A program made the translations under genes and the position numbers. Below are positions 3,573 through 55,731 of a DNA stretch of 64,000 bases, piece after piece. Numbering within the stretch: position 1 is the stretch's first letter; the number at the start of each line of letters is the position of its first letter. Origin of the DNA: Candidatus Yonathbacteria bacterium RIFCSPHIGHO2_02_FULL_44_14 (GTDB lineage Bacteria; Patescibacteriota; Minisyncoccia; Phycocordibacterales; UBA1550); NCBI GenBank assembly GCA_001823535.1, contig MHUT01000018.1, positions 55,628 to 119,627 on the forward strand, in the 5' to 3' direction. The notes below the pieces were generated by a model. That model was not told where the DNA came from. It saw nothing but the letters and a program-made list of their open reading frames with translations, and did no database searches.

Positions 3573-4070
3573 CTACGGACAAAAAGTTGTGTTTGCTGGA
3601 ATGGGTCCCGTAATCTGCTTTCCTATATTTAGACTGTCAACACACCAAGATAGCGCAGCGTTGGTGTTTAGCGGAACTGAGACCGCCCACGCATCACGCG
3701 TGGCAGACATAGCGCAAGTAGCGACCCATGTTGCATTACTATCTGAAAGTTTCTCTGCTGCAACGATAGCAGGGTTGATGCTTAATGTTGCCGCCGGATC
3801 AAACACAGTATTCGCAGTTGAACAGGCAGCAACGGTAGTGGCATAAACAAGAGCTCCGGCAGTGCCATAATTATTATTTGTATTATAGTAATTCTGAGCT
3901 TGTGTACGAAAATCTCCCAATATTGTCTTGATTGACGCATCTGCGGCCTTTGCGCGAGCGGCCTGGAGCGATACAATAACAACCGATGCAAGAATACCAA
4001 TGATGGCAATCACAACGAGAAGTTCGATAAGTGTAAAACCTTTTGATTTCATAAAATAATGTCTCGTCAA
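3573..4070 (-). CDS. type IV major pilin-like protein
   Basis: MKSKGFTLIELLVVIAIIGILASV... canonical type IVa pilin N-terminus, 165 aa. Confidence 0.75.
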   Translation of the reverse strand: MTRHYFMKSKGFTLIELLVVIAIIGILASVVIVSLQAARAKAADASIKTILGDFRTQAQNYYNTNNNYGTAGALVYATTVAACSTANTVFDPAATLSINPAIVAAEKLSDSNATWVATCAMSATRDAWAVSVPLNTNAALSWCVDSLNIGKQITGPIPANTTFCP

Positions 4071-4313: not shown

Positions 4314-4796
4314 CTATGAAGCTGAGCAAACAGTTACGCCTGATGCAATGAGTGCGGCATTTGCGCGAGAGGCACCCATGCTATCAATACACCAATAACC
4401 TGCTCCCTTCAATTTTACTGAAGCTGCATAGGCGTCACCAGTAGCAGTGATATTACATGTTGCGTCTGTACCACCGTTCGTTGATACAGCATGATCAATT
4501 GCAGCTTGAACATTAGTATCCTGGAAAATATGGTTTGCTGTCGTAATAGGGCTTACTACTGCAATGGCTCCGCAAGCCGCAGAGTTTAGAACGGCTGCTG
4601 TCCCACTGTATTTATTGCCAATCGTATCAAACAGAACCTCAGCAGACGCGCGAATACCTGCGAGATCTGCTTTAATAGCCGCGTCTGAACCCTTCGCACG
4701 TGCACTGTTGAGTGACGCGAGAACAACCGATGCGAGAATACCGATGATTGCAATAACAACCAAGAGTTCGATAAGTGTAAAACCTTTTGATTTCAT
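4314..4796 (-). CDS. pilA: type IV major pilin (PilA-like)
   Basis: MKSKGFTLIELLVVIAIIGILASVVLASLNSARAKG... Near-identical N-terminus to the neighbouring pilin, i.e. paralogous pilins. Confidence 0.8.
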   Translation of the reverse strand: MKSKGFTLIELLVVIAIIGILASVVLASLNSARAKGSDAAIKADLAGIRASAEVLFDTIGNKYSGTAAVLNSAACGAIAVVSPITTANHIFQDTNVQAAIDHAVSTNGGTDATCNITATGDAYAASVKLKGAGYWCIDSMGASRANAALIASGVTVCSAS

Positions 4797-4884
4797 ATTT
4801 TTAAAAACGAGTAATTAACCTGATAAATTCTCTTTTGTGAGAGAGAGTGGCATGGCCATCGGCCACCCTCTCTATCACTCCTAT

Positions 4885-4914
4885 ATTATACCACCTATCT
4901 TATTTTATGTGCAA
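4885..4914 (-). promoter_or_regulatory. candidate sigma70-type promoter for pilA (TTGCAC-18 nt-TATAAT), followed by a 5'UTR hairpin (4840-4872)
   Basis: On the minus strand, TTGCAC ...18 nt... TATAAT lies about 90 nt upstream of the pilA start. The imperfect hairpin GAGAGAGTGGC/GCCACCCTCTC sits in the leader. Confidence 0.35.
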
Positions 4915-5037
4915 GGGAGTTGGGGATAAGTGTCGTAGAATAATTGACATCTGACAGGTACTCTTGACGGGAATACACAAGAAGGGTTTGCAAGGCGGTG
5001 TCAAATGTCAAATGTTATCAAGAAGCCTTGCTTCTGG

Positions 5038-6234
5038 CTACACATTCCCCGCAATCTGGTAAATAGGAATGAGCACTGAGGCAAGCACTCCGCCGACACC
5101 GATACCGAGCGCCACAATCATGACTGGCTCAATCATAGAAATCACTGTATTGATGGCATTTGTTACCTCGCGCTGATAAAGAAGCGAGAGTTTCTGAAGA
5201 ATATTACCGAGCTCTCCTGTTTCTTCGCCAACCTTGACCATCTGAATCATTACGTTTGGTATTTCAGGGTGCCCCATAAGCGTAGCTGAAAGCGGTGCAC
5301 CACCCTTCACGGCGATAACTGCTTTCGATAGAATGTCTTGATAAATTTGATTATCAACTACTTTCGCGGTGATCTCGATGGACCGCACCATAGAGATACC
5401 ATTGCTTAGCATCACATGCATGTTGTCTGTAATGCGAGATAAATAGAGCATGCGATAGAGATTGCCGACGACAGGGAGCCAGAGTTTCAGATGCGCTAGA
5501 AAGGCTGTACCGCGTGTGTACCGCCATACAAAAAAGATTCCTGCGACAAGGACCATGAGAACAAATACACCGTAATTTACGAGGATAAAACTGGCTTTAA
5601 TCACGACTGTCGTATAAAACGGCACTTCTTGCCCGCCCTGAGTAATAACATCTGAAAGTTTTGGGATTACCAACGTGAGCATAAGCACCATCACGACAAT
5701 AAAGGTAAAAATAACAAAAGACGGATAAATGAGAGCACCGCGCGCTTTCGACATAAGCTCATACGATCGCTCGAGGTAGTCCGCGAGAGCCTCAAAAGTC
5801 TCCGAGAGTTTACCTGACTCTTCTCCTCCAATAACCATATTTACATAAAAATCTGAAAATAGACTTGGGTGCTTCAAAAAAGCGCCGGAAATAGGAACAC
5901 CGTTTTGAATGTCATCGGATATCTCAGTAAACTTCTTTGTGATTAATGGGTTCTCTGCCTCGGCAGCAATCAGGCGAAATGTTTTTAGCGCAGGAACATG
6001 CGCGTCAAGAAGCGTTGCAATTTGACGCGAAATAATCGAGATTTCTTTTACAGAAACACGATTAAAAATATTAATATCTATCTCAAAGAGGCCTTTTTTG
6101 TCGATGTCTCGCACTGAAATAACCACGAGGCCACTTCTTTGAAGCGCATTGATTGCAGAATCCTGGTTTTGTGCTTCGATATTGCCAGAGGTTTCTCCGC
6201 CTTCTTTTGTAACTGCTTTGTATGCAAAAAGCAT
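5038..6234 (-). CDS. pilC: type IV pilus assembly platform protein PilC (GspF family)
   Basis: 398 aa with the two-repeat GspF architecture and three TM segments; adjacent to pilT and pilB. Confidence 0.85.
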   Translation of the reverse strand: MLFAYKAVTKEGGETSGNIEAQNQDSAINALQRSGLVVISVRDIDKKGLFEIDINIFNRVSVKEISIISRQIATLLDAHVPALKTFRLIAAEAENPLITKKFTEISDDIQNGVPISGAFLKHPSLFSDFYVNMVIGGEESGKLSETFEALADYLERSYELMSKARGALIYPSFVIFTFIVVMVLMLTLVIPKLSDVITQGGQEVPFYTTVVIKASFILVNYGVFVLMVLVAGIFFVWRYTRGTAFLAHLKLWLPVVGNLYRMLYLSRITDNMHVMLSNGISMVRSIEITAKVVDNQIYQDILSKAVIAVKGGAPLSATLMGHPEIPNVMIQMVKVGEETGELGNILQKLSLLYQREVTNAINTVISMIEPVMIVALGIGVGGVLASVLIPIYQIAGNV

Positions 6235-19400: not shown

Positions 19401-19474
19401 CCGTCCATAGCTCAGTTGGTTAGAGCACAGAGCTTATATCTCTGCGGTCCCAGGTTCAAGTCCTGGTGGACGGA
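19401..19474 (+). tRNA. tRNA-Ile with anticodon TAT (reads AUA), CCA not encoded
   Basis: CCGTCCA acceptor, TA, GCTC-AGTTGGTTA-GAGC D-arm, CAGAG-CTTATAT-CTCTG anticodon arm (anticodon TAT at 19435-19437), CCAGG-TTCAAGT-CCTGG T-arm, TGGACGG acceptor 3' strand, discriminator A. Confidence 0.7.
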
Positions 19475-19490
19475 CAAAGAATTTAAATAC

Positions 19491-23403: not shown

Positions 23404-23809
23404 CGGGGATGATCGGCCTAGACAGGCGATTCCCTCTTGTAGGTGCTATGCCGAGAATACTCGAGATCTCGTTAAACCTCGAGTACCAACCTAGTTGCAA
23501 AAAACAACCTCGTTGCAAAAGCAAAGTCAATTGTTTCACCTTTCTTTAAGGCGAACGACTTTGCTCCTACTTACGCTTTAGCCTAAGTAGCATTCGCGCT
23601 CAATACGCCCTCTAGGGAGTTGCGGGTGATATAAAAAGAGGGCTCATCGCTTTGAATGACTCTACGAAGTGAAAAAACATAGAGCATCGATAGTGTATAA
23701 TTTAGAATACTTTATATATACATTATTTAAACCCAAAAGAAGTATTCTACGCATAGTAGATTCCCACAAGAGCATCGTCTGCACGGGGGTTCGATTCCCC
23801 CCATCTCCA
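23404..23809 (+). ncRNA. ssrA: tmRNA (ssrA), about 406 nt, immediately downstream of smpB
   Basis: 5' GGGGATG pairs with 3' CATCTCC, including a G3:U70 wobble (the AlaRS identity element). T-arm GGGGG-TTCGATT-CCCCC. Internal tag ORF from resume codon GCG at 23550 encodes ANDFAPTYALA, stop TAA 23583-23585. 3' end followed by discriminator A. Confidence 0.8.
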
Positions 23810-25367
23810 CATCGTGGGAGTTTACACACGCAAACTCCTCAAAAAGCCTTACAGCACAAGGCAGGTTATCGGTTCGATAGCCTGTCTTTTTGCTATACGC
23901 CAGTTTCTCTTCAAAAATGAAGAAATAGAGCCTGTGTTTTTCAAGCACATCGACAGAGCTCCATATCTTGTATGGGCTTTTAAGCAATCCTGTAGCCTTA
24001 TTGAGGGCGGTTTGATAAGGAACCGATGTATCAGACAAATCGATATCAACAGCCCCTATTCCCTCGAACTCAATTACTACTTCCTCAAGCTTGCCCTCGT
24101 ATGCTCTTTTAACCGCATCTGATTTTGCGGCTATAATCAAATCAGTAAGTTCACTAATTTTTACCTCAAGCTCTTGCCTCTTTCTTTGCTTAAGATCCTC
24201 TAACTTACGAATATCTCCAGCCTCTTCTTGCCAGACCCCACTAAAAACTTTTTGCACTAAGACATCTACACCTCCACCCAATATTTGTTTTTTCAAAAGA
24301 GAGGTGAAGGCATCTTCCATATCTTTTTTCCTTATCATCTTGCCATTTTGTTCGCAATTCTTGTTTTGACAATAATAATACGGGTATTTTTTAGACCTTC
24401 CTTTGACCCACGCGCCAGTAAGAGGTTTGTTGCACTCGCCACACACATGCAAACCACGCAACGGAAAGTCATCTGAGACATCCACTCGTATTCTCTTGCT
24501 CAATCCTTGAGATTTAGTCCTTCTTTGATTTATCTCGTATGTATCTAAAGAAATAATTGCCTTATGGTGCCCCTTGCGTCGTTCAACCTCCCACTCGGGA
24601 TATTCGATAGACCCTGAGTAAAACGGATCTCTGAGTATTATCGAAAACTTATCAATGTACTTCTCTGGCGACTGCTTTCCCCAAAACCCATTCTCTACCA
24701 GATACTTGCAGGCATCAATTTTTCTTACAAAGACTCCCGTTGAAAAGCTTTCAAGGGCGTATTTGAGCAATGGTGCCTCTGTTTTATGCGGCACCGCAAG
24801 TTTGCCATGCAAGGGGTCTTTAATCATCGTGTAGCCCTTTTTACTGCCAAACGTCCAGTATCCTGACTCAAGGCGAGCCTTCATTTTCTGAATTACCTGT
24901 CGTGTATTCTGTTTCCTTTCGAGCTGTCCCTGTGCGGCAAATATTGTTTCAACGAACTCACCTTCCGCAGTATCCTCAAAGTTAAAGTTTAAACATTCTG
25001 GCTTTGCATCACGCACCTTTAGTGCCATGCGCAACTTAATGTGAAATTGTGTATCTCGTGCAAACCTTTTTAAGTCATCAAAAATGACAGCAAATCGGAT
25101 AGACGGGTTCTTATCAAGATACTCAATCAACTGAGACATTGCAGGGCGGTTCATAAAATCTCCACCACCACTAAAACTGTCACGAAATACTTTTTCAACA
25201 ACATAACCCTGGCGTGAAGCATATTCACGGCAACGCTGTTCTTGTCCATCTAACCCATGCCCCTCTGTTGCCTGACGATCAGAAGACACGCGACAATAAA
25301 TGAGTGCTCGGTCATATTTAATAACACTTTTATCAAACAAACTCTTTTTCTTTTTAGTTTTACTCAT
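23727..25367 (-). CDS. large serine recombinase (resolvase/invertase catalytic domain + recombinase domain + zinc ribbon)
   Basis: N-terminus ALIYCRVSSDRQ... (catalytic Ser motif of serine recombinases), 546 aa with C-terminal Cys cluster (CGEC...C..C). The last ~27 codons overlap the 3' end of ssrA (GGIEPP = reverse complement of the T-arm). Confidence 0.8.
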   Translation of the reverse strand: MSKTKKKKSLFDKSVIKYDRALIYCRVSSDRQATEGHGLDGQEQRCREYASRQGYVVEKVFRDSFSGGGDFMNRPAMSQLIEYLDKNPSIRFAVIFDDLKRFARDTQFHIKLRMALKVRDAKPECLNFNFEDTAEGEFVETIFAAQGQLERKQNTRQVIQKMKARLESGYWTFGSKKGYTMIKDPLHGKLAVPHKTEAPLLKYALESFSTGVFVRKIDACKYLVENGFWGKQSPEKYIDKFSIILRDPFYSGSIEYPEWEVERRKGHHKAIISLDTYEINQRRTKSQGLSKRIRVDVSDDFPLRGLHVCGECNKPLTGAWVKGRSKKYPYYYCQNKNCEQNGKMIRKKDMEDAFTSLLKKQILGGGVDVLVQKVFSGVWQEEAGDIRKLEDLKQRKRQELEVKISELTDLIIAAKSDAVKRAYEGKLEEVVIEFEGIGAVDIDLSDTSVPYQTALNKATGLLKSPYKIWSSVDVLEKHRLYFFIFEEKLAYSKKTGYRTDNLPCAVRLFEEFACVNSHDVEMGGIEPPCRRCSCGNLLCVEYFFWV

Positions 25368-25530
25368 GTGTTTTGTTTACTTCCTTCTCATCTACACTGA
25401 GGTGTGTTTGTAGTTCGGTTTTTATAACATTTCGACAAAATGCTTCGAGATACTTTAAGCGTTTAGTAATACTTTCATCCGATGTCTTTTGATCATTCAG
25501 TATCTTGCGATACTCCTCAACTGTAACCAT
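25360..25530 (-). CDS. small ORF (56 aa) translationally coupled to the serine recombinase, possible accessory / directionality factor
   Basis: MVTVEEYRKILNDQKTSDESITKRLKYLEAFCRNVIKTELQTHL... Its stop overlaps the recombinase ATG (CATGAGTAA arrangement). Too short for the ORF track. Confidence 0.2.
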   Translation of the reverse strand: MVTVEEYRKILNDQKTSDESITKRLKYLEAFCRNVIKTELQTHLSVDEKEVNKTHE

Positions 25531-25620
25531 GTATTTTCATGATTGCGATACTGATTCAGTTTTTCCTGATAGCACATATCTTTTTTATAATGCTTTGGTT
25601 TTTCCCAATAGCAGAATGTT

Positions 25621-26430
25621 TTATTTAAATCTTTTTTTCTTGGTTACCTCAAGAGACTTAGTTTCTCCGTCCTCCGCCTGAAAAACAACTTTGCCATACA
25701 TTCGATTATTTTTTATCTCTTTTTGTACATCCAAATAAGACTGGGGATTTTGAAACACTTTAGTGCTTTCTATTTCAAATATTTTTCCTTTGTTTAAACG
25801 AACCGAGACTTTTTTATTCTCCTCAGAGCGCAATTCTGAAAGAGTTTCTTGCTCCTCTGCGTTTAGATAGTCAAGAAAATGCATACCAACCACTTTGTGC
25901 CCCAAGTCCTCAAGAATCGCCGCCAGAGAGATTAGGGTAACATCGTAATGGCTCTTAAGTATTTTAAGAAACTGCACCTCAGACGGAGCCGCCAAATGGA
26001 CCTCCCCGTTCGAAATTATAATAATGTAAGGATCATCTGATGTACTTAGAGCCTTGGCGATATAAAACTCAAACAAAAGATAACTGCCGCTTTTTTTATC
26101 TAATTTAAGTAGACTTTCTTTAGCCGACTTAATTTTATCTAAAGATAATCCCGCTTCTCTCATTCTGACAATTGCCTTTATCCAAACAAGTTCAACAAGT
26201 GTAAATTTTCTCCAACCACCTCCCTCAATAACCCCATCTGGCAACAAATTATTTGTAGCCCAATGGTGTATCATTCTGTAGTTAACCTCAGTGTCGCTTA
26301 CTGTAAATTTTTTTGACCTCATATTCTCCCAAAATACTTCGTATTCTGGCGAAGAACAATACTCTTTAAAATCATTGATACGATTCTCGTTTTTCTCAAC
26401 AAAGGCACCTGATATCTCTTTTTTCTTCAT
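25621..26430 (-). CDS. hypothetical protein (269 aa), possible HTH-like segment
   Basis: The segment WRKFTLVELVWIKAIVRMREAGLSLDKIK loosely resembles a MerR/excisionase-type HTH. Otherwise no motif. AT-rich. Confidence 0.35.
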   Translation of the reverse strand: MKKKEISGAFVEKNENRINDFKEYCSSPEYEVFWENMRSKKFTVSDTEVNYRMIHHWATNNLLPDGVIEGGGWRKFTLVELVWIKAIVRMREAGLSLDKIKSAKESLLKLDKKSGSYLLFEFYIAKALSTSDDPYIIIISNGEVHLAAPSEVQFLKILKSHYDVTLISLAAILEDLGHKVVGMHFLDYLNAEEQETLSELRSEENKKVSVRLNKGKIFEIESTKVFQNPQSYLDVQKEIKNNRMYGKVVFQAEDGETKSLEVTKKKRFK

Positions 26431-26626
26431 ATACTAAATTATACATAGATGTAAGCTTTAATCAAACAACTTGTCCACAAAGCCAAATAGTTCCATGTTC
26501 ATCTCCCTTATCAGCCCCCCCAATATACCCAAAGTCTTTATCCTTTATTTTTTTCACCAAAAACCAAACGGACCTTTAAATTAGCCGTAATTCAGCGATT
26601 TTTACTTTTTTAGAAAAGGACAATGT

Positions 26627-26985
26627 TCCCTTTTCCTTCACCCTTTCTTAACCTTGCTCTTCTTTACAAAAAAACAGATCTGTCCTTATAATTAGGACGT
26701 TATTTTAAATTTACGCTCCCGCATTCAAGGTGAAATTAACCATGAAATTCACCTTTTCTTTTCCTTGCTTTTCTTTGCAAAAAACCAACTAACCCTTTTA
26801 ACTAAGGCATTATTGGGGAATTTACGCTTCGCAGTCAAGGACAAATTATCCATGCAATTTACCTTTTCTTTTCATTGACTGCCTATACATAAAATTCATT
26901 AAACCCTTACAGTGAGGGTATTATTTAAAAATTAACACCCTAATTATCAATGATAATCTTTCTTTGCTTTTAACCTTTTTCGAAT
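26627..26985. repeat. three degenerate tandem repeats of about 120 bp in an 800-bp intergenic region, each ending in an AAGGTGAAATT-type inverted repeat (iteron-like)
   Basis: Unit consensus ttcaccttttcttttccttgc...caaaaaac...ttacgct(c/t)cgca(t/g)tcaagg(t/a)(g/c)aaatta(a/t)ccatg(a/c)aat. Perfect 11-bp inverted repeat aaggtgaaatt/aatttcacctt at 26727-26755. Confidence 0.5.
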
Positions 26986-27227
26986 CCGTAGACATACACC
27001 TAATGCCCCATCGGAGTTCGTGTGTACACCTATGCCGTTTGATGATAAAATAACCCTACAACCAAATAAGGAAGTATCCTAAACCATTGAGCAATCGGTG
27101 GCATGGTGAATAAGTCGAGTTAAGCATAAAGAACCCATCATGGGGTCGCTTAACTCGCCATATCGGGAAACCGGTATGAGTGGCTTAGGCCACTACCCGT
27201 GGTGGGCTTTTTGTATATCCAATAAAA

Positions 27228-28229
27228 ATGAAATCTAACAAAATATTAATACTCACCACCGCTTTTGCGAGCATTCTAACTTTGAGTGGTGTTGGTTATG
27301 TCAGTGTAAGGCAATATCAAAATTATCAGGAAGCGAGGGTTGGCGAAGCAAAGCAAGCACAAGAGCAAAGCATTGCCTTAAGAGATGCAGCCGTAGAAAT
27401 TAAAAAACTTAAACAAGAAAGCGAGCTGGCTAAACAAAAGCAAACAAGCCTTGAAGAGAGGGTTGGCGATGCCGCCAAATCGAGTGTACAAAACTTGTCG
27501 ATATCATCAACAGAACTTGCCCCCTACTTAACTGGTGTAGTCGAAATTGACTGTGTAGACACTAAAGGTAGCGGCTCTTTGTGGAATCTACCCGGCGTGG
27601 GTTACGTCGTTTTGACCAATAAGCATGTTGTAACCAAACCTTACCCAGCGACTGGGACATGCTGGGTAATGATTAGCGACTCAGAGAGAAGCAAAATCTC
27701 TGGTGACTTTAACACTATTGGTGTATATGACCTTAATCCAATTAAAAGATTTGCTTATAAATATCAACAGGCAGTGAACAGCAAGGTGGACATTGCCGTC
27801 TATCCAATTGAAAACAAAAATTTTGCAGAAATTAGCAATCCGATTGAAGGCTTAAACTATAAAATTTCTTCGCTAAAAAAGTGTCCTGAAGAGATGCCCG
27901 CCGGCTCCCCTATTGTTTTATTAGGATTCCCAGCATTTACAGAAAAAACAATAGAGGTCTTTGGATCTTCTCAAAACAAATCTTTCAGAACGATTACCAA
28001 TGGCATAATTAGCGCTCATGACACTTCAGTTACTGGCATATTTGGCGATTTGCCGTACGTCAATTATTTCGTCTCAGCAAAAATCGACAGTGGTAATTCT
28101 GGTGGAATTGCGTTTTCAAAGGATTCAAGGGGGTTGTGCGTCTTAGGAATCCCCACGTGGCTTACTGTTGGTAATTACGAAACACAAGGACTAATTCAAA
28201 ACATACATAATGCCTTTTACTCAAAATAA
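27228..28229 (+). CDS. membrane-anchored / secreted trypsin-like serine peptidase (S1 family)
   Basis: N-terminal TM/signal, coiled-coil linker, then catalytic-triad contexts TNKHVV (His), DIAVYP (Asp), DSGNSGG (Ser). Confidence 0.6.
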   Translation: MKSNKILILTTAFASILTLSGVGYVSVRQYQNYQEARVGEAKQAQEQSIALRDAAVEIKKLKQESELAKQKQTSLEERVGDAAKSSVQNLSISSTELAPYLTGVVEIDCVDTKGSGSLWNLPGVGYVVLTNKHVVTKPYPATGTCWVMISDSERSKISGDFNTIGVYDLNPIKRFAYKYQQAVNSKVDIAVYPIENKNFAEISNPIEGLNYKISSLKKCPEEMPAGSPIVLLGFPAFTEKTIEVFGSSQNKSFRTITNGIISAHDTSVTGIFGDLPYVNYFVSAKIDSGNSGGIAFSKDSRGLCVLGIPTWLTVGNYETQGLIQNIHNAFYSK

Positions 28230-28255
28230 CGAAATAATTTGAACATCAAAAAAAC

Positions 28256-28465
28256 ATGAACAAACCTTTTGTCGCTTGGAATTTAATATGGGTAGTGATA
28301 GCTCTTACTGTCATACTATTTTCTGACAGTTCAACTAACTGGGGCCAAGCTATGCCAGTCGTAGTTGCATCAATAGTCCTCTATTTTTCTATAGGAAAAA
28401 GAATTGACCACCTTGAAAGTAAGATTGACGCAAAAAAATCAAAAACTAATAAACTACATCAATAA
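28256..28465 (+). CDS. small membrane protein (69 aa, 2 TM)
   Basis: Hydrophobic ORF immediately downstream of the protease gene. Confidence 0.3.
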   Translation: MNKPFVAWNLIWVVIALTVILFSDSSTNWGQAMPVVVASIVLYFSIGKRIDHLESKIDAKKSKTNKLHQ

Positions 28466-28470
28466 TAAAA

Positions 28471-30222
28471 CTACTCTTTCGACTCTTCATAGTCGATAGC
28501 CTGTTTAAACTGTTTATAGAACAAAGGATCACTAACACTGAGTTTTACAACCTGTCTATCTCGAACATCAAACTTGAGCTCTTTGTCAGCTAAAGCATCA
28601 GGCATCACATCAGAATTATAGGTCGCAATATACTGAAAAGAATTCTCGTCCAAAGAATGTATATAGTTAACGATGTTGAAAGTAGCATCGTTGTCTATGT
28701 CACCAAAAAGTAGCCTATCGTGGACTAATAATTTTTGCATTTTTTCAGATGTGTGCTCGTTAACCAGTAAGCTCAGATCGTAAATTATCTGCCTAACTCG
28801 ATTTACTCCTTCACTCCCTTGCCGATGTGCTTCTGCTTTTATCTTAAAGAACTCTTTATCTTTTATATTTCTTTTTAGGCTTAAGTCAAAAGCAAATACT
28901 CCATCTTTGTTGCCATAGATTTTCTCGTGAATATCAAGAAAAGTTTTACGAAAAGATACTTCTTTTCCATTGACAACAAAGAAGGCGGCTTCCAGCGTTG
29001 AATACAGTGTTTGAAACTCAGAATTTACCTCTCTTGCATTCTGGTCATATTCATCGTAGGTTTCTATAAGTTTCCCATTATCATTAAAATCATTTATTAA
29101 TTCATGAGAAATCTTCAGCCCTCTTTGAAGATGGTTTCTCCCTTCAGTAATAATTGCTTGATACTTCAACGTATTAACCCTCTGGGTAGTGATGTCGTTT
29201 TCCAAGCGTGCAAGGCTACCCCTGAGAGCGTCTTCTTGCCCTGAGAGCATCTCCGCCTCAAAAACATGGATTTCGTCCCTAAACTTTTTCAACTGTTCTA
29301 AATCTCTTTGCACAAAATCTCCGAGTCCTGCAATATACTTATTAAAAAAACGTTGTAATTGCTTGTCTGTGATAATCGTATCTTCATCTTGATGCCCGAG
29401 AAATTCCTCGATTTCACTAAGTTGGTACTCAATCCTACCCTTCTGTCTAAGGGTGTCAGTCAATGCGTCCTCTGCCTCTTGCAACTTTGATGAATTACTT
29501 GAAACCTCTTTTGAGATTTCGTCGTAGGACAACCCTTGCTCTATTTTTACTATTCTCTCCTCTAAATCCGATTGTAGAGAACGCAGTTTATTAATATCAA
29601 GCCCCTTGTCTTCTATTTTCTTTATTGTCACCCTTGAAACAGTGCTTAGGCTGTCATACTCATCTTGCTTTGATCGAAGTTGTTCAAATAATTTTACAGG
29701 TAGTCCAAAGAAATATAAACTGGTGCGCAACCTATCTATTACATTAGACGGAAAAAAGTAAAGAAAAGTAGAATAAGAGTAATTAGATTCTTTAATTACA
29801 AAATTACATAGTTCCCTAAAAGAAATATCATTACCTAACCCTGAGATGTTAGCAAGTTCATCTTTAGCAGTTTTTTCTGACATCTCCTGGAACTCACCAT
29901 TATCAACCTTCATCAATACTTCATTTTTCTTATTTCGCGCTACCGTAACATCCTTCCCGTTAATGGTAAGGTTCATGTACACGAAGGAATTCTGAGGGAG
30001 AATGCTATCTGGCACCCCGTGTATGCGACCCTCGCTCTCTCTTTTCATCAAAACAAAATTAATTAATTCAATTGAGAGGCTTTTCCCAGACCCATTTCGC
30101 TGCTCATTTACATTGCCATTTTTGTCCTTTGAATTTTCTCCAACAATAAAATTTATCCCCGGTTTAAAAACGAGTTCTTTAAACCTATTTTCCTCAGACC
30201 AGACTCTATTGATTCTTATCAT
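28471..30222 (-). CDS. coiled-coil ABC-type (SMC/RecF-like) ATPase, candidate ABC-3C-system ATPase (DUF2326-like)
   Basis: N-terminal P-loop FKPGINFIVGENSKDKNGNVNEQRNGSGKSLSIELINFVL; about 300 aa predicted coiled coil; C-terminal Walker B / D-loop KLLVHDRLLFGDID. 583 aa. Confidence 0.55.
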   Translation of the reverse strand: MIRINRVWSEENRFKELVFKPGINFIVGENSKDKNGNVNEQRNGSGKSLSIELINFVLMKRESEGRIHGVPDSILPQNSFVYMNLTINGKDVTVARNKKNEVLMKVDNGEFQEMSEKTAKDELANISGLGNDISFRELCNFVIKESNYSYSTFLYFFPSNVIDRLRTSLYFFGLPVKLFEQLRSKQDEYDSLSTVSRVTIKKIEDKGLDINKLRSLQSDLEERIVKIEQGLSYDEISKEVSSNSSKLQEAEDALTDTLRQKGRIEYQLSEIEEFLGHQDEDTIITDKQLQRFFNKYIAGLGDFVQRDLEQLKKFRDEIHVFEAEMLSGQEDALRGSLARLENDITTQRVNTLKYQAIITEGRNHLQRGLKISHELINDFNDNGKLIETYDEYDQNAREVNSEFQTLYSTLEAAFFVVNGKEVSFRKTFLDIHEKIYGNKDGVFAFDLSLKRNIKDKEFFKIKAEAHRQGSEGVNRVRQIIYDLSLLVNEHTSEKMQKLLVHDRLLFGDIDNDATFNIVNYIHSLDENSFQYIATYNSDVMPDALADKELKFDVRDRQVVKLSVSDPLFYKQFKQAIDYEESKE

Positions 30223-30508
30223 GTTTCTTAATAGTTATATACGGTCTTTCAAATTCGATTAACTTTAGTGCATACATTAAAAATATTGCGAAATATATTT
30301 GCCTTCCAGGAACACGCGGGCTGATTTTTCTTATCTGATTGAATAAAGTATAAATTGGGATATTTTTGTCCTCCCGCAACATACCTGGGGCACGAACGTT
30401 ATCTCGCAAAAGTAAATAACAAAGATATATTGGGCTTGAAGTAATCCGGGCATGCTTGTTAAAAAGCGAAAGCTGTACATTTTCCTTTTCTACTAAAACT
30501 TGTTTCAT
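30206..30508 (-). CDS. small (100 aa) protein, candidate middle component of the three-gene system
   Basis: Overlaps the ATPase start by 17 nt. Its start abuts the stop of the upstream gene (30510), indicating translational coupling. Confidence 0.4.
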   Translation of the reverse strand: MKQVLVEKENVQLSLFNKHARITSSPIYLCYLLLRDNVRAPGMLREDKNIPIYTLFNQIRKISPRVPGRQIYFAIFLMYALKLIEFERPYITIKKHDKNQ

Positions 30509-30509
30509 A

Positions 30510-31517
30510 TTATATCTTAATTAAAGGAAAAACGTCGCATTTAAAAAACATATTCAGCAAGAAACTTAAGACATGTGAACTTGGGACAAATCCCAAACCT
30601 AACTCATTTCTCATTTGTAAGGCCATCTGGTTAATAGCATTCACTGGGTCGTTGTTATTCGCGTGAAGCAAAATTGTACTTTTGGTTCTTAGATATCCCT
30701 GTATAACACTCTTGTCGACCTCGTTTAGATCCTGAGAAAATGCTTCTTCTACATATTTGTGGTAGGAAATAAACCTCTCAATCTCAGACCCATCGTCTTT
30801 TAAACCAATGGAGGCTTTATAGATCTGGACCAACGCAGTCCATTCATCATTATATTTTTTCATTTTTTCCGCAGGGCTTGTTATGTACACCAGCTCCTCG
30901 TTCTCAATATTACTTTCCGATGAATTATTTCTCAACGAGAGGTTGAGAGAATTGAATAACATTTTGAACACTTCGGCATCCACATTTCTGTTAGAAATAA
31001 CATCTTCTGGCATAACAATAGATCCTTCGACATACGCACATATTTTCTTCATTTGTTCATCATCTGCATTATCAATCTCACGGAATATTTCGGCTGCAGA
31101 CAAAATCTTCAAAGAATAGCCTTCGTAAGACGGAGCAAATTTTTTAAGGTTATTTGGTAAATCAGTATCCTGAATTACAAAAAGAACCTCTGAAAAATCT
31201 TTATTCTCAGAAAAGGGTGGGATACTTGTGAAGGTATTTTTGATCTTTGATAAATCCTTTTGAACAGTTACTTGAATGCCTTGCTTCTTTTTAGTACTCA
31301 GAACATCAATACCCGGATAATTTACTTTTAATTTTTTTGTTGGTATATATTCTGGGTTATCCTTTTCGTATAGAATATTATATAATCCTGTTATAAAATC
31401 TTCAGCAGAAATTGCCCCGTTATTTCTGTTTGTTTTTGAATCTGTCCTGTTCTTTTGAAAATACAAAAGGGTCTTTGATGTTATTGAGTCCCACATCTTC
31501 TCCCTTAAAGTAATCAT
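30510..31517 (-). CDS. 335-aa protein, candidate effector component (first gene of the operon)
   Basis: First gene of the co-directional trio. Weak PD-(D/E)xK-like spacing around PGIDVL...KQGIQVTVQK. Otherwise unassigned. Confidence 0.35.
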   Translation of the reverse strand: MITLREKMWDSITSKTLLYFQKNRTDSKTNRNNGAISAEDFITGLYNILYEKDNPEYIPTKKLKVNYPGIDVLSTKKKQGIQVTVQKDLSKIKNTFTSIPPFSENKDFSEVLFVIQDTDLPNNLKKFAPSYEGYSLKILSAAEIFREIDNADDEQMKKICAYVEGSIVMPEDVISNRNVDAEVFKMLFNSLNLSLRNNSSESNIENEELVYITSPAEKMKKYNDEWTALVQIYKASIGLKDDGSEIERFISYHKYVEEAFSQDLNEVDKSVIQGYLRTKSTILLHANNNDPVNAINQMALQMRNELGLGFVPSSHVLSFLLNMFFKCDVFPLIKI

Positions 31518-31890
31518 GATTTAAATATTATAGCACCCAATCACACAAGACCGCTACTCAATCGCCAGCTGACTTATTATCAAATTCTTATATTCTCACG
31601 TGGTCAACATCGTGTGACTTCAAAACATCTCATATGGCCTGTTTTATGACCCTACAAGCACCTTTTAAACCTCTTGGTTCTCAAAATATAGAGCTCTGAA
31701 TGACCATTAACTGTGTAGCCTGACTTTCCCACCCATTCTAACTAATACTTAATTCAATACTCTACCTGTGCCCCTCTGATGACTGCTTAATCAAACATTT
31801 GCAAGGGCTAATTGTAGCGCAGGACTGCTTTGATAATATGTCCAAAAGCGAGAAAGATAGGTTTTTACACGGTTTAATGTTTTTTGGCGT

Positions 31891-31954
31891 ATCTCCACAA
31901 ATATGCAAAAAACCCAGAACAAGCGTTCTGGGTTTTTTGCATATTTGTGGAGAT
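31891..31954. repeat. perfect 64-bp palindrome (30-bp arms, 4-nt centre) containing a bidirectional intrinsic-terminator core
   Basis: atctccacaaatatgcaaaaaacccagaac-aagc-gttctgggttttttgcatatttgtggagat. The left arm starts with atctccaca, identical to the last 9 nt of ssrA (23803-23811). Confidence 0.6.
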
Positions 31955-31956
31955 GA

Positions 31957-32455
31957 GCAGTGTGCCTGCGCACACTGCGTGGGGGAATCGAAGCCTCGGA
32001 GCATATTTTTGTTTGCCACCTGCAAACAAAAATGCGAGAGGCAGCCAAAGAACGCGAGATGTTTTATGAATCCGATAGGATGAAATAAAACTCCGCGATT
32101 CTGAGGCGATGAACCTGGGGAATCGAGAAGCAGAAGCGGGCACCTAGTGTACTCACTGGGTCGCTGAGATGGGGCTGAAAGTACTTGGTGCTCGCAGTGA
32201 GTACTCTCACGAGAACACCTAGTAACTTGTAGCCGATGAACCCCAAAGACGCCTGTGCGTCTTGCGTGGGGGAATCGAAAGACGGAGGCATCCCGAGGCT
32301 TCTGCGAAGGAGCCGAGTCGGGGTAGCGGATACTTAATGCTCGCAGGGCGTACTCGCCCGAGAACATTTAGTAATCCGTGACCGATGAACCCTGAATCAA
32401 AAAGCTCAGGCGGATACCCTGTGTACTCACATGGTATCCGAGTTAGGCTGAAAGT
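31957..32455. repeat. tandem array (3-4 copies) of about 140-nt structured repeat units, candidate ncRNA(s)
   Basis: Units end in cgatgaacc (32107-32115, 32234-32242, 32383-32391) and begin with (t)ggggaatcga(g/a)aag. Conserved hairpins with loop TACT whose stems differ by compensatory changes (gcagTGAGtactCTCAcgag 32194-32213 vs gcagGGCGtactCGCCcgag 32343-32362). Confidence 0.5.
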
Positions 32456-32480
32456 AAAAAGCGCTTCCGAAGAAGCGCGT
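32456..32480 (-). terminator. intrinsic terminator downstream of the 32512..32934 gene (minus strand)
   Basis: GCGCTTC-ttcg-GAAGCGC followed by TTTTTAC on the minus strand. Confidence 0.45.
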
Positions 32481-32511: not shown

Positions 32512-32934
32512 TCAACAAACCAAATCTTCTTCGGCCTCGCCTTCATTGGGGCAAGTGCCGGTGAACGCATTGAGACACCAGATATTGTTACAAGATACAC
32601 AACTGGCATCCCGAACTTCTTGGTGGCGTGGCAACTCCCACAATAACACTGCTGCACGGCCGCCTTGTGCCTCGGGTTCCTGCTGATCAACAACATCCGC
32701 TAACTCATGCGGATCCAACACTTCGTCGAAATCGGGCGAATAACCTTGGGGTGTCGTGACACCCTCTTTGATTGGTGGTTTCCAAAAATGAACGAGGTGC
32801 AGCATTGCAATATATCTTGCGTTTTCAGCCATCCCTAAAGATGGAGTGATTTTCCGTGCATAGGGCAAGGAAGCCCTTCTTTCTACATTCATTTTTGTTC
32901 CCCTTTCAAAAAACTGTTCGAAAATATGACCCAT
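32512..32934 (-). CDS. hypothetical protein (140 aa)
   Basis: ORF with Cys-rich C-terminus (CVSCNNIWCLNAFTGTCPNEG). No assignable family. Confidence 0.3.
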   Translation of the reverse strand: MGHIFEQFFERGTKMNVERRASLPYARKITPSLGMAENARYIAMLHLVHFWKPPIKEGVTTPQGYSPDFDEVLDPHELADVVDQQEPEAQGGRAAVLLWELPRHQEVRDASCVSCNNIWCLNAFTGTCPNEGEAEEDLVC

Positions 32935-55452: not shown

Positions 55453-55731
55453 TTATGCGATTTTCTTTCCGATGACCTTGAAAGATTTATCTTTCGAGAT
55501 GGGGCGACATTCTTCAATAGTAACTTGGTCTCCTGTTTTAAATGCACCTTCTTCGTCGTGCGCTTTGTACTTTTTAGAAATTTTCATAAACTTTCCGTAC
55601 TTTGGATGCTTTTTAAAACGATTTACAAGGACCGTTACCGTCTTCATCATCTTGTCTGACACGACAGTTCCTTGAAGTTGCTTACGGGTTACGTTGCTTT
55701 CTGTGCTAGTTTTTTTGTTGGTTTTTTCCAT
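55453..55731 (-). CDS. rpsQ: 30S ribosomal protein S17
   Basis: [29 protein letters not shown]-fold signature. Confidence 0.85.

Follow-up and report, generated by a model that had tools for sequence, protein, structure and literature searches.

A probable short Lamassu (ABC-3C) operon with a SMEK effector, carried as exchangeable cargo on a tmRNA-site island in Candidatus Yonathbacteria

ABC three-component (ABC-3C) systems, as Krishnan et al. reportedly set them out in 2020, are said to be equivalent to short Lamassu. They fall within the Lamassu superfamily (PMC10586767), whose mechanism has been solved structurally in complexes from Vibrio cholerae and Salmonella (PMC12663957, PMC10586767). 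The complex has the stoichiometry LmuA1B2C1, it senses DNA ends, and LmuA is activated as a tetramer (PMC12663957); the V. cholerae system, DdmABC, restricts both plasmids and phages (PMC10586767). SMEK is listed as an effector class specific to short Lamassu in a survey based on DefenseFinder (Haudiquet et al., PMC12663957), and the literature treats it as an Mrr-like PD-(D/E)xK nuclease, nuclease activity having been reported in the KjAgo system. Here we compare with these systems three neighboring genes found at 28471-31517, on the minus strand, of a 64,000-nucleotide (nt) window of Candidatus Yonathbacteria bacterium RIFCSPHIGHO2_02_FULL_44_14 (positions 55,628 to 119,627 of contig MHUT01000018.1); all coordinates below are those of the window. 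We read them, with a probability of roughly 0.8, as a complete type II 'short' Lamassu (ABC-3C) operon, lmuA-lmuC-lmuB, of the SMEK/MC6/DUF2326 kind, carried as exchangeable cargo on a serine-recombinase island at the transfer-messenger RNA (tmRNA) gene. The names SMEK, MC6 and CTD10 are used in the sense given by Pfam and by papers that cite Krishnan et al. The host belongs to the Patescibacteria/Parcubacteria group of the Candidate Phyla Radiation (CPR), as the initial annotation, made from the letters alone, had supposed; NCBI assigns proteins identical to those of the window to Candidatus Yonathbacteria bacterium RIFCSPHIGHO2_01_FULL.

The listing of open reading frames (ORFs) agrees exactly with the three co-directional minus-strand genes of 335, 100 and 583 amino acids (aa) first noted there. 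The first, lmuA (30510-31517, minus strand), encodes a 335-aa effector protein with an N-terminal SMEK (Mrr-like PD-(D/E)xK) domain and a helical C-terminal domain; the homologue alignment favors its M1 start over the 328-aa start of public gene callers. The second, lmuC (30206-30508, minus strand), encodes the 100-aa middle component, a probable divergent member of MC6 (ABC-3C Middle Component 6), and the third, lmuB (28471-30222, minus strand), a 583-aa Rad50/SMC-like coiled-coil ABC ATPase of the DUF2326 family and of the short-Lamassu size class. The genes had been described as overlapping throughout, which holds for lmuC and lmuB, sharing 17 nt, and not for lmuA and lmuC, where stop and start are one base apart. 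The low GC content of the segment is real, 0.34-0.38 over 25-32 kb versus 0.42-0.47 in the flanks. Promoter and terminator scans gave counts no higher than those of shuffled sequence.

The three-gene arrangement is not due to chance; it recurs in every related locus examined. All 14 other loci have the order SMEK protein, 75-100-aa protein, DUF2326 ATPase. For 12 of them the DNA was fetched (L001, L002, L004, L005, L008-L013 and one plasmid each of Rhizobium and Vibrio), and two were read solely from gene tables, namely the P0011 contig and another P0010 contig, from JGI; the P0010 protein of L002 is also carried by L003, a shorter contig. The co-occurrence on which the initial annotation had made its proposal depend was thus found throughout. 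Identity to the window ATPase is 28-33% in L012 and L013 and 22-26% in the Rhizobium and Vibrio alginolyticus plasmids. The trio is the sole gene set common to the fetched loci in an all-against-all comparison of flanking ORFs. A conserved fourth gene was sought by the same BLAST comparison and dropped for want of any shared neighbor, and the ~140-150-aa ORFs near several trios are unrelated to one another. The surroundings are those of mobile DNA: the Rhizobium trio sits on a conjugative plasmid, and the L013 trio adjoins phage lysis genes; the trio in L011 lies beside an Mrr_cat protein. NCBI names the Vibrio proteins 'ABC-three component system protein', 'ABC-three component system middle component 6' and 'DUF2326 domain-containing protein'. 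Homologues are rare, at 13-23 for each trio protein in 5.8 billion sequences, and their neighborhoods differ. In L005, a Candidatus Saccharibacteria metagenome-assembled genome (CAZUAA010000010.1), two ORFs of 91 and 234 aa (4593-5598) stand in for a single lmuA homologue, while lmuC and lmuB are intact; the split reflects either a pseudogenized effector or an assembly error.

LmuB matches Pfam DUF2326 at 7.8e-20 (residues 431-570) and the PADLOC defense candidate PDC-M68B at 2.2e-40. All 23 LmuB homologues found carry DUF2326, a branch whose MC6 and CTD10 neighbors link it to ABC-3C in Pfam and at NCBI. The AlphaFold2 model has two ABC head halves and a ~260-residue coiled coil, the arm extending over residues ~176-436 (28915-29697, minus strand) in helices 176-205, 210-229, 231-276 and 300-436; a CxxC zinc hook was not found in LmuB. 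The ATP-binding motifs are intact. In the Walker A motif, or P-loop (Q41-RNGSGKS-48; 30079-30102, minus strand), G44, G46, K47 and S48 are invariant in 22 homologues, although model confidence (pLDDT) is low at residues 40-43; in Walker B (L498-LVHD-R503; 28714-28731, minus strand) H501 and D502 are invariant, as is a signature-like GSEG at residues 469-472. The P-loop, the LLVHD and the coiled coil quoted in the initial annotation are all present, and the motifs are conserved in homologues. A ~14-residue insertion, ENSKDKNGNVNEQR (residues 29-42; 30097-30138), separates the first beta-strand (NFIVG) from the P-loop (NGSGKS). It is a family-specific feature present in all DUF2326 relatives examined, six residues shorter in one of them, and is modeled with low confidence.

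Like the ATPases of short Lamassu, LmuB is about 600 residues long (583 aa) and its Walker B hhhhD is followed by a residue other than Glu. This residue, 503, is Arg in place of the catalytic Glu; close-clade proteins have R here, and distant homologues N or S. Because Arg replaces Glu after the Walker B aspartate, the sequence suggests that LmuB could bind ATP as a switch while hydrolyzing it slowly or not at all, the level of hydrolysis being predicted from Arg503. Arg503 is a variation on a known theme of short Lamassu. Among the comparison values listed for LmuB, the highest is that of V. cholerae type II Lamassu LmuB (9uxl_A, 22.1), which exceeds SMC (20.9) and Rad50 (20.5) by a small margin only; the others are Salmonella Lamassu LmuB (20.3), Type I LmuB (18.6), Wadjet JetC (14.1), Septu PtuA (13.2) and PARIS AriA (12.9).

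LmuA matches SMEK_N at 4.6e-14 in Pfam and 5.8e-11 in NCBIfam, as do all members of its family scanned (10/10, best 6.1e-22). Among solved structures, the family profile also finds the Mrr domain of Mrr-APAZ, the short-Argonaute partner from Kordia jejudonensis (1e-9, residues 17-161), and in the AlphaFold2 model (pLDDT 82.4, pTM 0.80) the N-terminal domain is predicted to adopt a restriction-endonuclease fold. This SMEK/Mrr-like nuclease domain spans residues ~17-161 (31035-31469, minus strand), with a putative active site of E39, D71, Q82-x-T84 and K91. The motif is intact: conservation of E39, D71, Q82-x-T/S84 and K91 extends from the CPR clade to proteobacterial SMEK proteins, and the Kordia domain has them too. 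The weak PD-(D/E)xK spacing first remarked on in the 335-aa protein thus belongs to an Mrr-like PD-(D/E)xK nuclease domain, SMEK_N. The accompanying suggestion of a new effector or sensor class does not survive, since SMEK is already listed as a short-Lamassu effector (PMC12663957); the effector class of LmuA is a known one. The remainder of LmuA, residues ~170-335 (30513-31010, minus strand), is a helical domain presumed to serve docking and oligomerization, and ends in a conserved FF-x-C-D-V-F-P. HHalign aligns LmuA with the Rhizobium plasmid SMEK protein over the full length with a probability of 97.9, including the terminal C-[DN]-V-F-P. That motif is common to the Rhizobium, L013 and window-clade LmuA proteins; in the Vibrio CTD10 protein C-D alone is aligned, and loosely. 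The C-terminal domain of the Vibrio relative is the Pfam CTD10 of ABC-3C systems, and the window domain has no direct CTD10 match.

The 100-aa gene between lmuA and lmuB has the size and place of a middle component. LmuC has no direct match in any library scanned, Pfam included, and single-sequence and profile searches of the PDB gave chance-level results only. Its relatives are more informative: three of nine close ones match MC6, at 0.0017, and when 1.84 billion representative proteins were searched exhaustively with a profile, only 20 were recovered, which together with the window LmuC make 21 sequences, 17 of them matching MC6 (best 4.3e-10). The small genes of two plasmid trios match MC6 at 2.8e-11 and 7.9e-5. 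LmuC therefore probably belongs to MC6 by a link that is transitive but consistent. With a DUF2326 ATPase, an MC6-linked middle protein and a trio kept in all 14 other loci, the proposal of an ABC-3C-type conflict system on a mobile island, made in the initial annotation, is upheld, and Pfam domains and architecture point to a place for it in the SMEK short-Lamassu clade.

Several observations weigh against this assignment. Searches of PDB sequences with LmuB, as a single sequence and as a family profile, found no solved Lamassu LmuB and only chance coiled-coil matches, so that the link between LmuB and Lamassu is drawn from fold, Pfam and neighbor evidence. The solved LmuB proteins belong to the DUF3732 family, whereas LmuB here belongs to DUF2326; PADLOC's Lamassu models are not matched by it, the candidate PDC-M68B being its one PADLOC match. 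The Arg that follows the Walker B aspartate falls outside the D[Q/S/T/E] set of short Lamassu, the survey reporting Q, S, T or E at this position (PMC12663957). The SMEK motif of LmuA is D...QxT...K and not the canonical D...(D/E)xK, and because of this departure the catalytic competence of LmuA is argued from family conservation, which suggests an active nuclease. The C-terminal domain of LmuA has no detectable similarity or fold match to solved LmuA C-terminal domains. The literature consulted gave no experimental test of any SMEK/MC6/DUF2326 system, and this branch has no solved structure.

How might the system work? By analogy with the V. cholerae and Salmonella complexes, an LmuB dimer with one LmuC at its heads would hold a single LmuA monomer sequestered and inactive. 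Foreign DNA structures (free ends, phage or plasmid replication intermediates), together with ATP at the LmuB heads, may then bring about the release of LmuA, which would oligomerize through its C-terminal domain and allow the SMEK nuclease to degrade DNA indiscriminately. Such degradation would abort the infection at the cost of the cell. Sequestration and tetramerization of LmuA are extrapolated here, because its C-terminal domain resembles no solved LmuA C-terminal domain.

The operon lies on a mobile element at the tmRNA gene. This gene (ssrA; 23405-23812, plus strand; called by ARAGORN and by Rfam RF00023 at 121.8 bits) is preceded by smpB and is the integration target. Directly after its 3' end comes an integrated low-GC island of ~8.1 kb (23812-31950), delimited by the GC profile and by empty-site loci. 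The island integrase is a large serine recombinase (23727-25367, minus strand) whose ORF overlaps the tmRNA 3' end; it matches Pfam Resolvase at 6.4e-21, Zn_ribbon_recom and Recombinase, and a PHROG integrase at 8.2e-58. The initial annotation had placed a recombinase next to the operon: the two share the island, but the recombinase is ~3 kb from the operon end and not immediately adjacent. The layout is repeated in L002, where a serine recombinase again abuts the tmRNA gene, and because that recombinase is only 22% identical to the one in the window, the tmRNA site is a recurrent landing site. Two empty-site loci, L072 and L112, have a structured repeat unit no more than ~70 nt after the tmRNA gene, whereas its counterpart in the window is 8 kb away (31975-32400). 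Because the empty sites keep this unit close to the tmRNA gene, the island can be bracketed at ~23812-31950. The borders were set from these two loci and from the sister island L016, and the right end is approximate (31621-31950). A long attL/attR direct repeat of the tmRNA 3' end was searched for and none was found, as expected for a serine recombinase.

The sister island L016 is 91% identical across the tmRNA gene, the recombinase and a MerR-like segment, and also has in common with the window a LOOT RNA, a 69-aa gene and the right flank. It matches the window at 28253-28400 and 31621-32242, and between these matches is a variable cargo slot (28401-31620) that contains the Lamassu operon and ~100 nt upstream of it. 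The slot in L016 (791-3494, plus strand) contains instead a C5 cytosine DNA methylase (DNA_methylase, 1.4e-54) and a 573-aa HATPase_c_3/Hypoth_Ymh protein that matches PADLOC REase_II models, a pair that is restriction-modification-like. Because L016 holds this pair there, the Lamassu operon can be said to occupy a swappable defense-cargo slot, with defense cargo exchanged on one island backbone, Lamassu in the window and the restriction-modification-like pair in L016. The swappable slot is independent contextual support for a defense role. L072 and L112, the empty-site relatives, have no copy of the trio, and neither has L016.

What else could such a trio be? It could serve the island itself, through addiction-type stabilization, exclusion of competitors or the elimination of plasmids as by DdmABC, and not protect the host from phages. 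The trio is always in mobile contexts, be they tmRNA-site islands (the window and L002), plasmids or a prophage-like region (L013), and V. cholerae DdmABC acts on plasmids as well as phages (PMC10586767). However, a role of this kind would differ in target and not in mechanism, sequence separates neither role from the other, and the restriction-modification-like pair in the same slot of L016 fits generic defense cargo; we consider it improbable that the island is the sole beneficiary. A housekeeping or repair ATPase of the Rad50/SbcC/RecN kind, with an associated nuclease and no part in conflict, is hardly credible. No Mre11/SbcD or ScpAB partner is present, no housekeeping SMC/RecN/RecF family is matched in Pfam or NCBIfam, where the latter gave only a chance match at 0.099, and the initial annotation's own check for such a family with a conserved neighborhood found neighborhoods that vary. 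The trio is moreover low in GC, on an island, sparse among sequenced proteins and missing from the three relatives just named. A decaying or inactive relic is also very unlikely, even though the ATPase would be unable to hydrolyze ATP, the nuclease lacks a canonical (D/E)xK (Walker B D-R; a SMEK QxT with a displaced Lys) and lmuA is split in L005. All three window ORFs are intact, and the residues that look deviant are invariant across homologues otherwise 38-75% identical, which argues that they are constrained family features. A residue other than Glu after Walker B is normal in short Lamassu, and D/QxT/K is also the pattern of the solved K. jejudonensis Mrr domain.

The gene next to the operon deserves the same scrutiny. 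An S1/trypsin-like gene does lie on the opposite strand at 27228-28229 (plus strand), as first noted; it encodes a Trypsin_2 domain (E 5.6e-8) behind a hydrophobic N-terminal anchor, and it is 242 nt from the lmuB stop codon. Given this proximity, and given that some Lamassu subtypes have protease effectors, the protease could form a fourth component, in a protease-type ABC-3C/Lamassu effector pair. Yet it is on the other strand, its anchor suggests export, and it stands behind its own LOOT RNA. As a partner of the trio it was rejected, with no homologue by the trio in the 12 DNA-read loci, none listed on the two gene-table contigs, and no copy in L016. In protease-type Lamassu, furthermore, the protease is the LmuA N-terminal domain, a position held here by SMEK. 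We give this pairing almost no credence, and the initial annotation's view of the protease as an ABC-3C partner is withdrawn: the gene is separate, independent cargo. The LOOT RNA (27076-27194, plus strand; Rfam RF03000, 85.9 bits) ends 34 nt upstream of the protease gene, and because its L016 counterpart (3740-3858, minus strand; 62.3 bits) precedes a homologue of the 69-aa membrane-protein gene, it belongs to the island backbone and not to the protease.

Returning to the short Lamassu operon and its carrier, a bolder interpretation is that the CPR SMEK/MC6/DUF2326 clade constitutes a mechanistically distinct Lamassu branch. LmuB would then be a non-hydrolyzing, single-use ATP switch suited to ultra-small episymbionts without most DNA repair, and the island a previously undescribed carrier of CPR defense cassettes. 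The traits behind it are the Arg after Walker B, the ~14-residue insertion before the P-loop, the longer LmuC and an LmuA C-terminal domain unlike the solved ones; for the carrier, they are the tmRNA-adjacent serine recombinase, the swappable defense slot, the LOOT RNA and the flanking tandem structured RNA-like units. We regard this as doubtful.

Other features of the island and its surroundings can be described briefly. The recombinase ORF extends 86 nt into the tmRNA 3' end on the opposite strand (23727-23812), the T-arm being translated as the C-terminal tail of the ORF, ...GGIEPP...; either the integrase gene spans the attachment junction or its true stop is earlier. Between the MerR-like gene and the LOOT RNA are three ~88-nt direct repeats (26609-26917; ~110-nt spacing, 61-73% identity), partly conserved in L016, which may serve the island as iterons or regulatory repeats. 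The presumed right end has a 64-nt near-perfect palindrome (31891-31954; CCACAAATATGCAAAAAACCCAGAAC...GTTCTGGGTTTTTTGCATATTTGTGG) that resembles a bidirectional terminator; its matches to miRNA families in Rfam are spurious. Upstream of the island, a tRNA-Ile gene with anticodon TAT (UAU) is found at 19401-19475 (plus strand). The UAU anticodon is an uncommon bacterial way of reading AUA.

Beyond the right end, a non-coding stretch of ~500 nt (31960-32470) has folding z scores, relative to shuffled sequence, of -9.8 on the plus strand and -7.9 on the minus strand. The stretch is made up of about three ~130-nt units in tandem, which have GGGGAATCGA and CGATGAACC as their boundaries, and Rfam gave no match at E<=1. 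Each unit starts with the reverse complement of the tmRNA T-arm and 3' end. RNAalifold yields 26 predicted pairs, of which 15 show compensatory changes. In a metagenome pattern scan most matches were at chance level, and 6 of 119 loci are truly related (L016:58-328, L021:1055-1193, L039:687-822, L112:379-517 and L107:3639-3704 on the minus strand, L072:1744-1882 on the plus strand). Where the locus has a tmRNA gene the related units are always 3' of it and co-oriented, ~70 nt off in the island-free L072 and L112. Two ORFs of public callers, one of 201 aa over the units and one of 140 aa just downstream (32512-32934), were judged spurious. The units could be a tmRNA-associated RNA not described before, or an array related to the att site.

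The practical outcome is a confident functional annotation for three "hypothetical proteins", among them A2747_02845 as the middle component and A2747_02850 as the ATPase (NCBI locus tags). If the assignment is right, Lamassu-type abortive-infection defense reaches CPR bacteria, and suicide-type immunity is notable given their tiny genomes and episymbiotic lifestyle; no paper tying Lamassu to Patescibacteria was found among the top-ranked literature, which is no proof of absence. A tmRNA-site island with a cargo slot that exchanges defense systems is documented. A SMEK/MC6/DUF2326 representative would be a reasonable study target, although it opens no new category or long-standing question.

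Compared with the systems already described, the window trio is closest to short Lamassu with a SMEK effector (Haudiquet et al., PMC12663957). It has the same lmuA-lmuC-lmuB order, an LmuB of ~600 aa with a Walker A motif and a non-Glu residue after Walker B, a SMEK domain at the LmuA N-terminus and a mobile, defense-type location; it differs in its CPR host and in having Arg after Walker B where the survey has Q, S, T or E. The SMEK_N-CTD10/MC6/DUF2326 subtype on the V. alginolyticus plasmid NZ_CP135970.1 (WP_171346269/WP_140075367/WP_171346268) and the Rhizobium sp. ZX09 plasmid NZ_CP031365.1 is identical in domain architecture and gene order, but the ATPases are only 22-26% identical and the plasmid LmuC proteins are 78-80 aa long versus 100 aa in the window. 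Because LmuC and the LmuA C-terminal domain fall below the Pfam thresholds for MC6 and CTD10 that define this subtype, the window trio can be placed in a divergent CPR clade.

More distant are V. cholerae DdmABC/Lamassu Vc-Cap4 and Salmonella LmuACB (PDB 9NY5, 9NYG, 9NXX, 9uxl, 9hqu), which have a DUF3732 LmuB without detectable sequence similarity to the one here, a Cap4 effector in place of SMEK, and an LmuA C-terminal domain and LmuC not detectably related. The K. jejudonensis KjAgo SMEK/Mrr-APAZ system (PDB 26bh) has a homologous nuclease domain (profile E 1e-9) with the same E/D/QxT/K pattern, but the window has no APAZ or Argonaute, and its sensor is an ABC ATPase and not a guide-loaded pAgo. 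A short pAgo SMEK/Mrr-APAZ system was accordingly rejected, as only the SMEK part matches (PADLOC Aga_REase, LmuA residues 33-114) and LmuA and its neighbors have no APAZ or PIWI. Septu, PARIS, Gabija, Wadjet and OLD were rejected too, there being no PtuA, AriA, GajA or JetC profile match with a matching partner nuclease. Pfam (SMEK_N, CTD10, MC6, DUF2326), NCBI product names and the 2025 Lamassu survey already cover the architecture, which is no new kind of system; what is mildly new is the CPR host, the divergent CPR clade, and the tmRNA-site island with exchangeable defense cargo.

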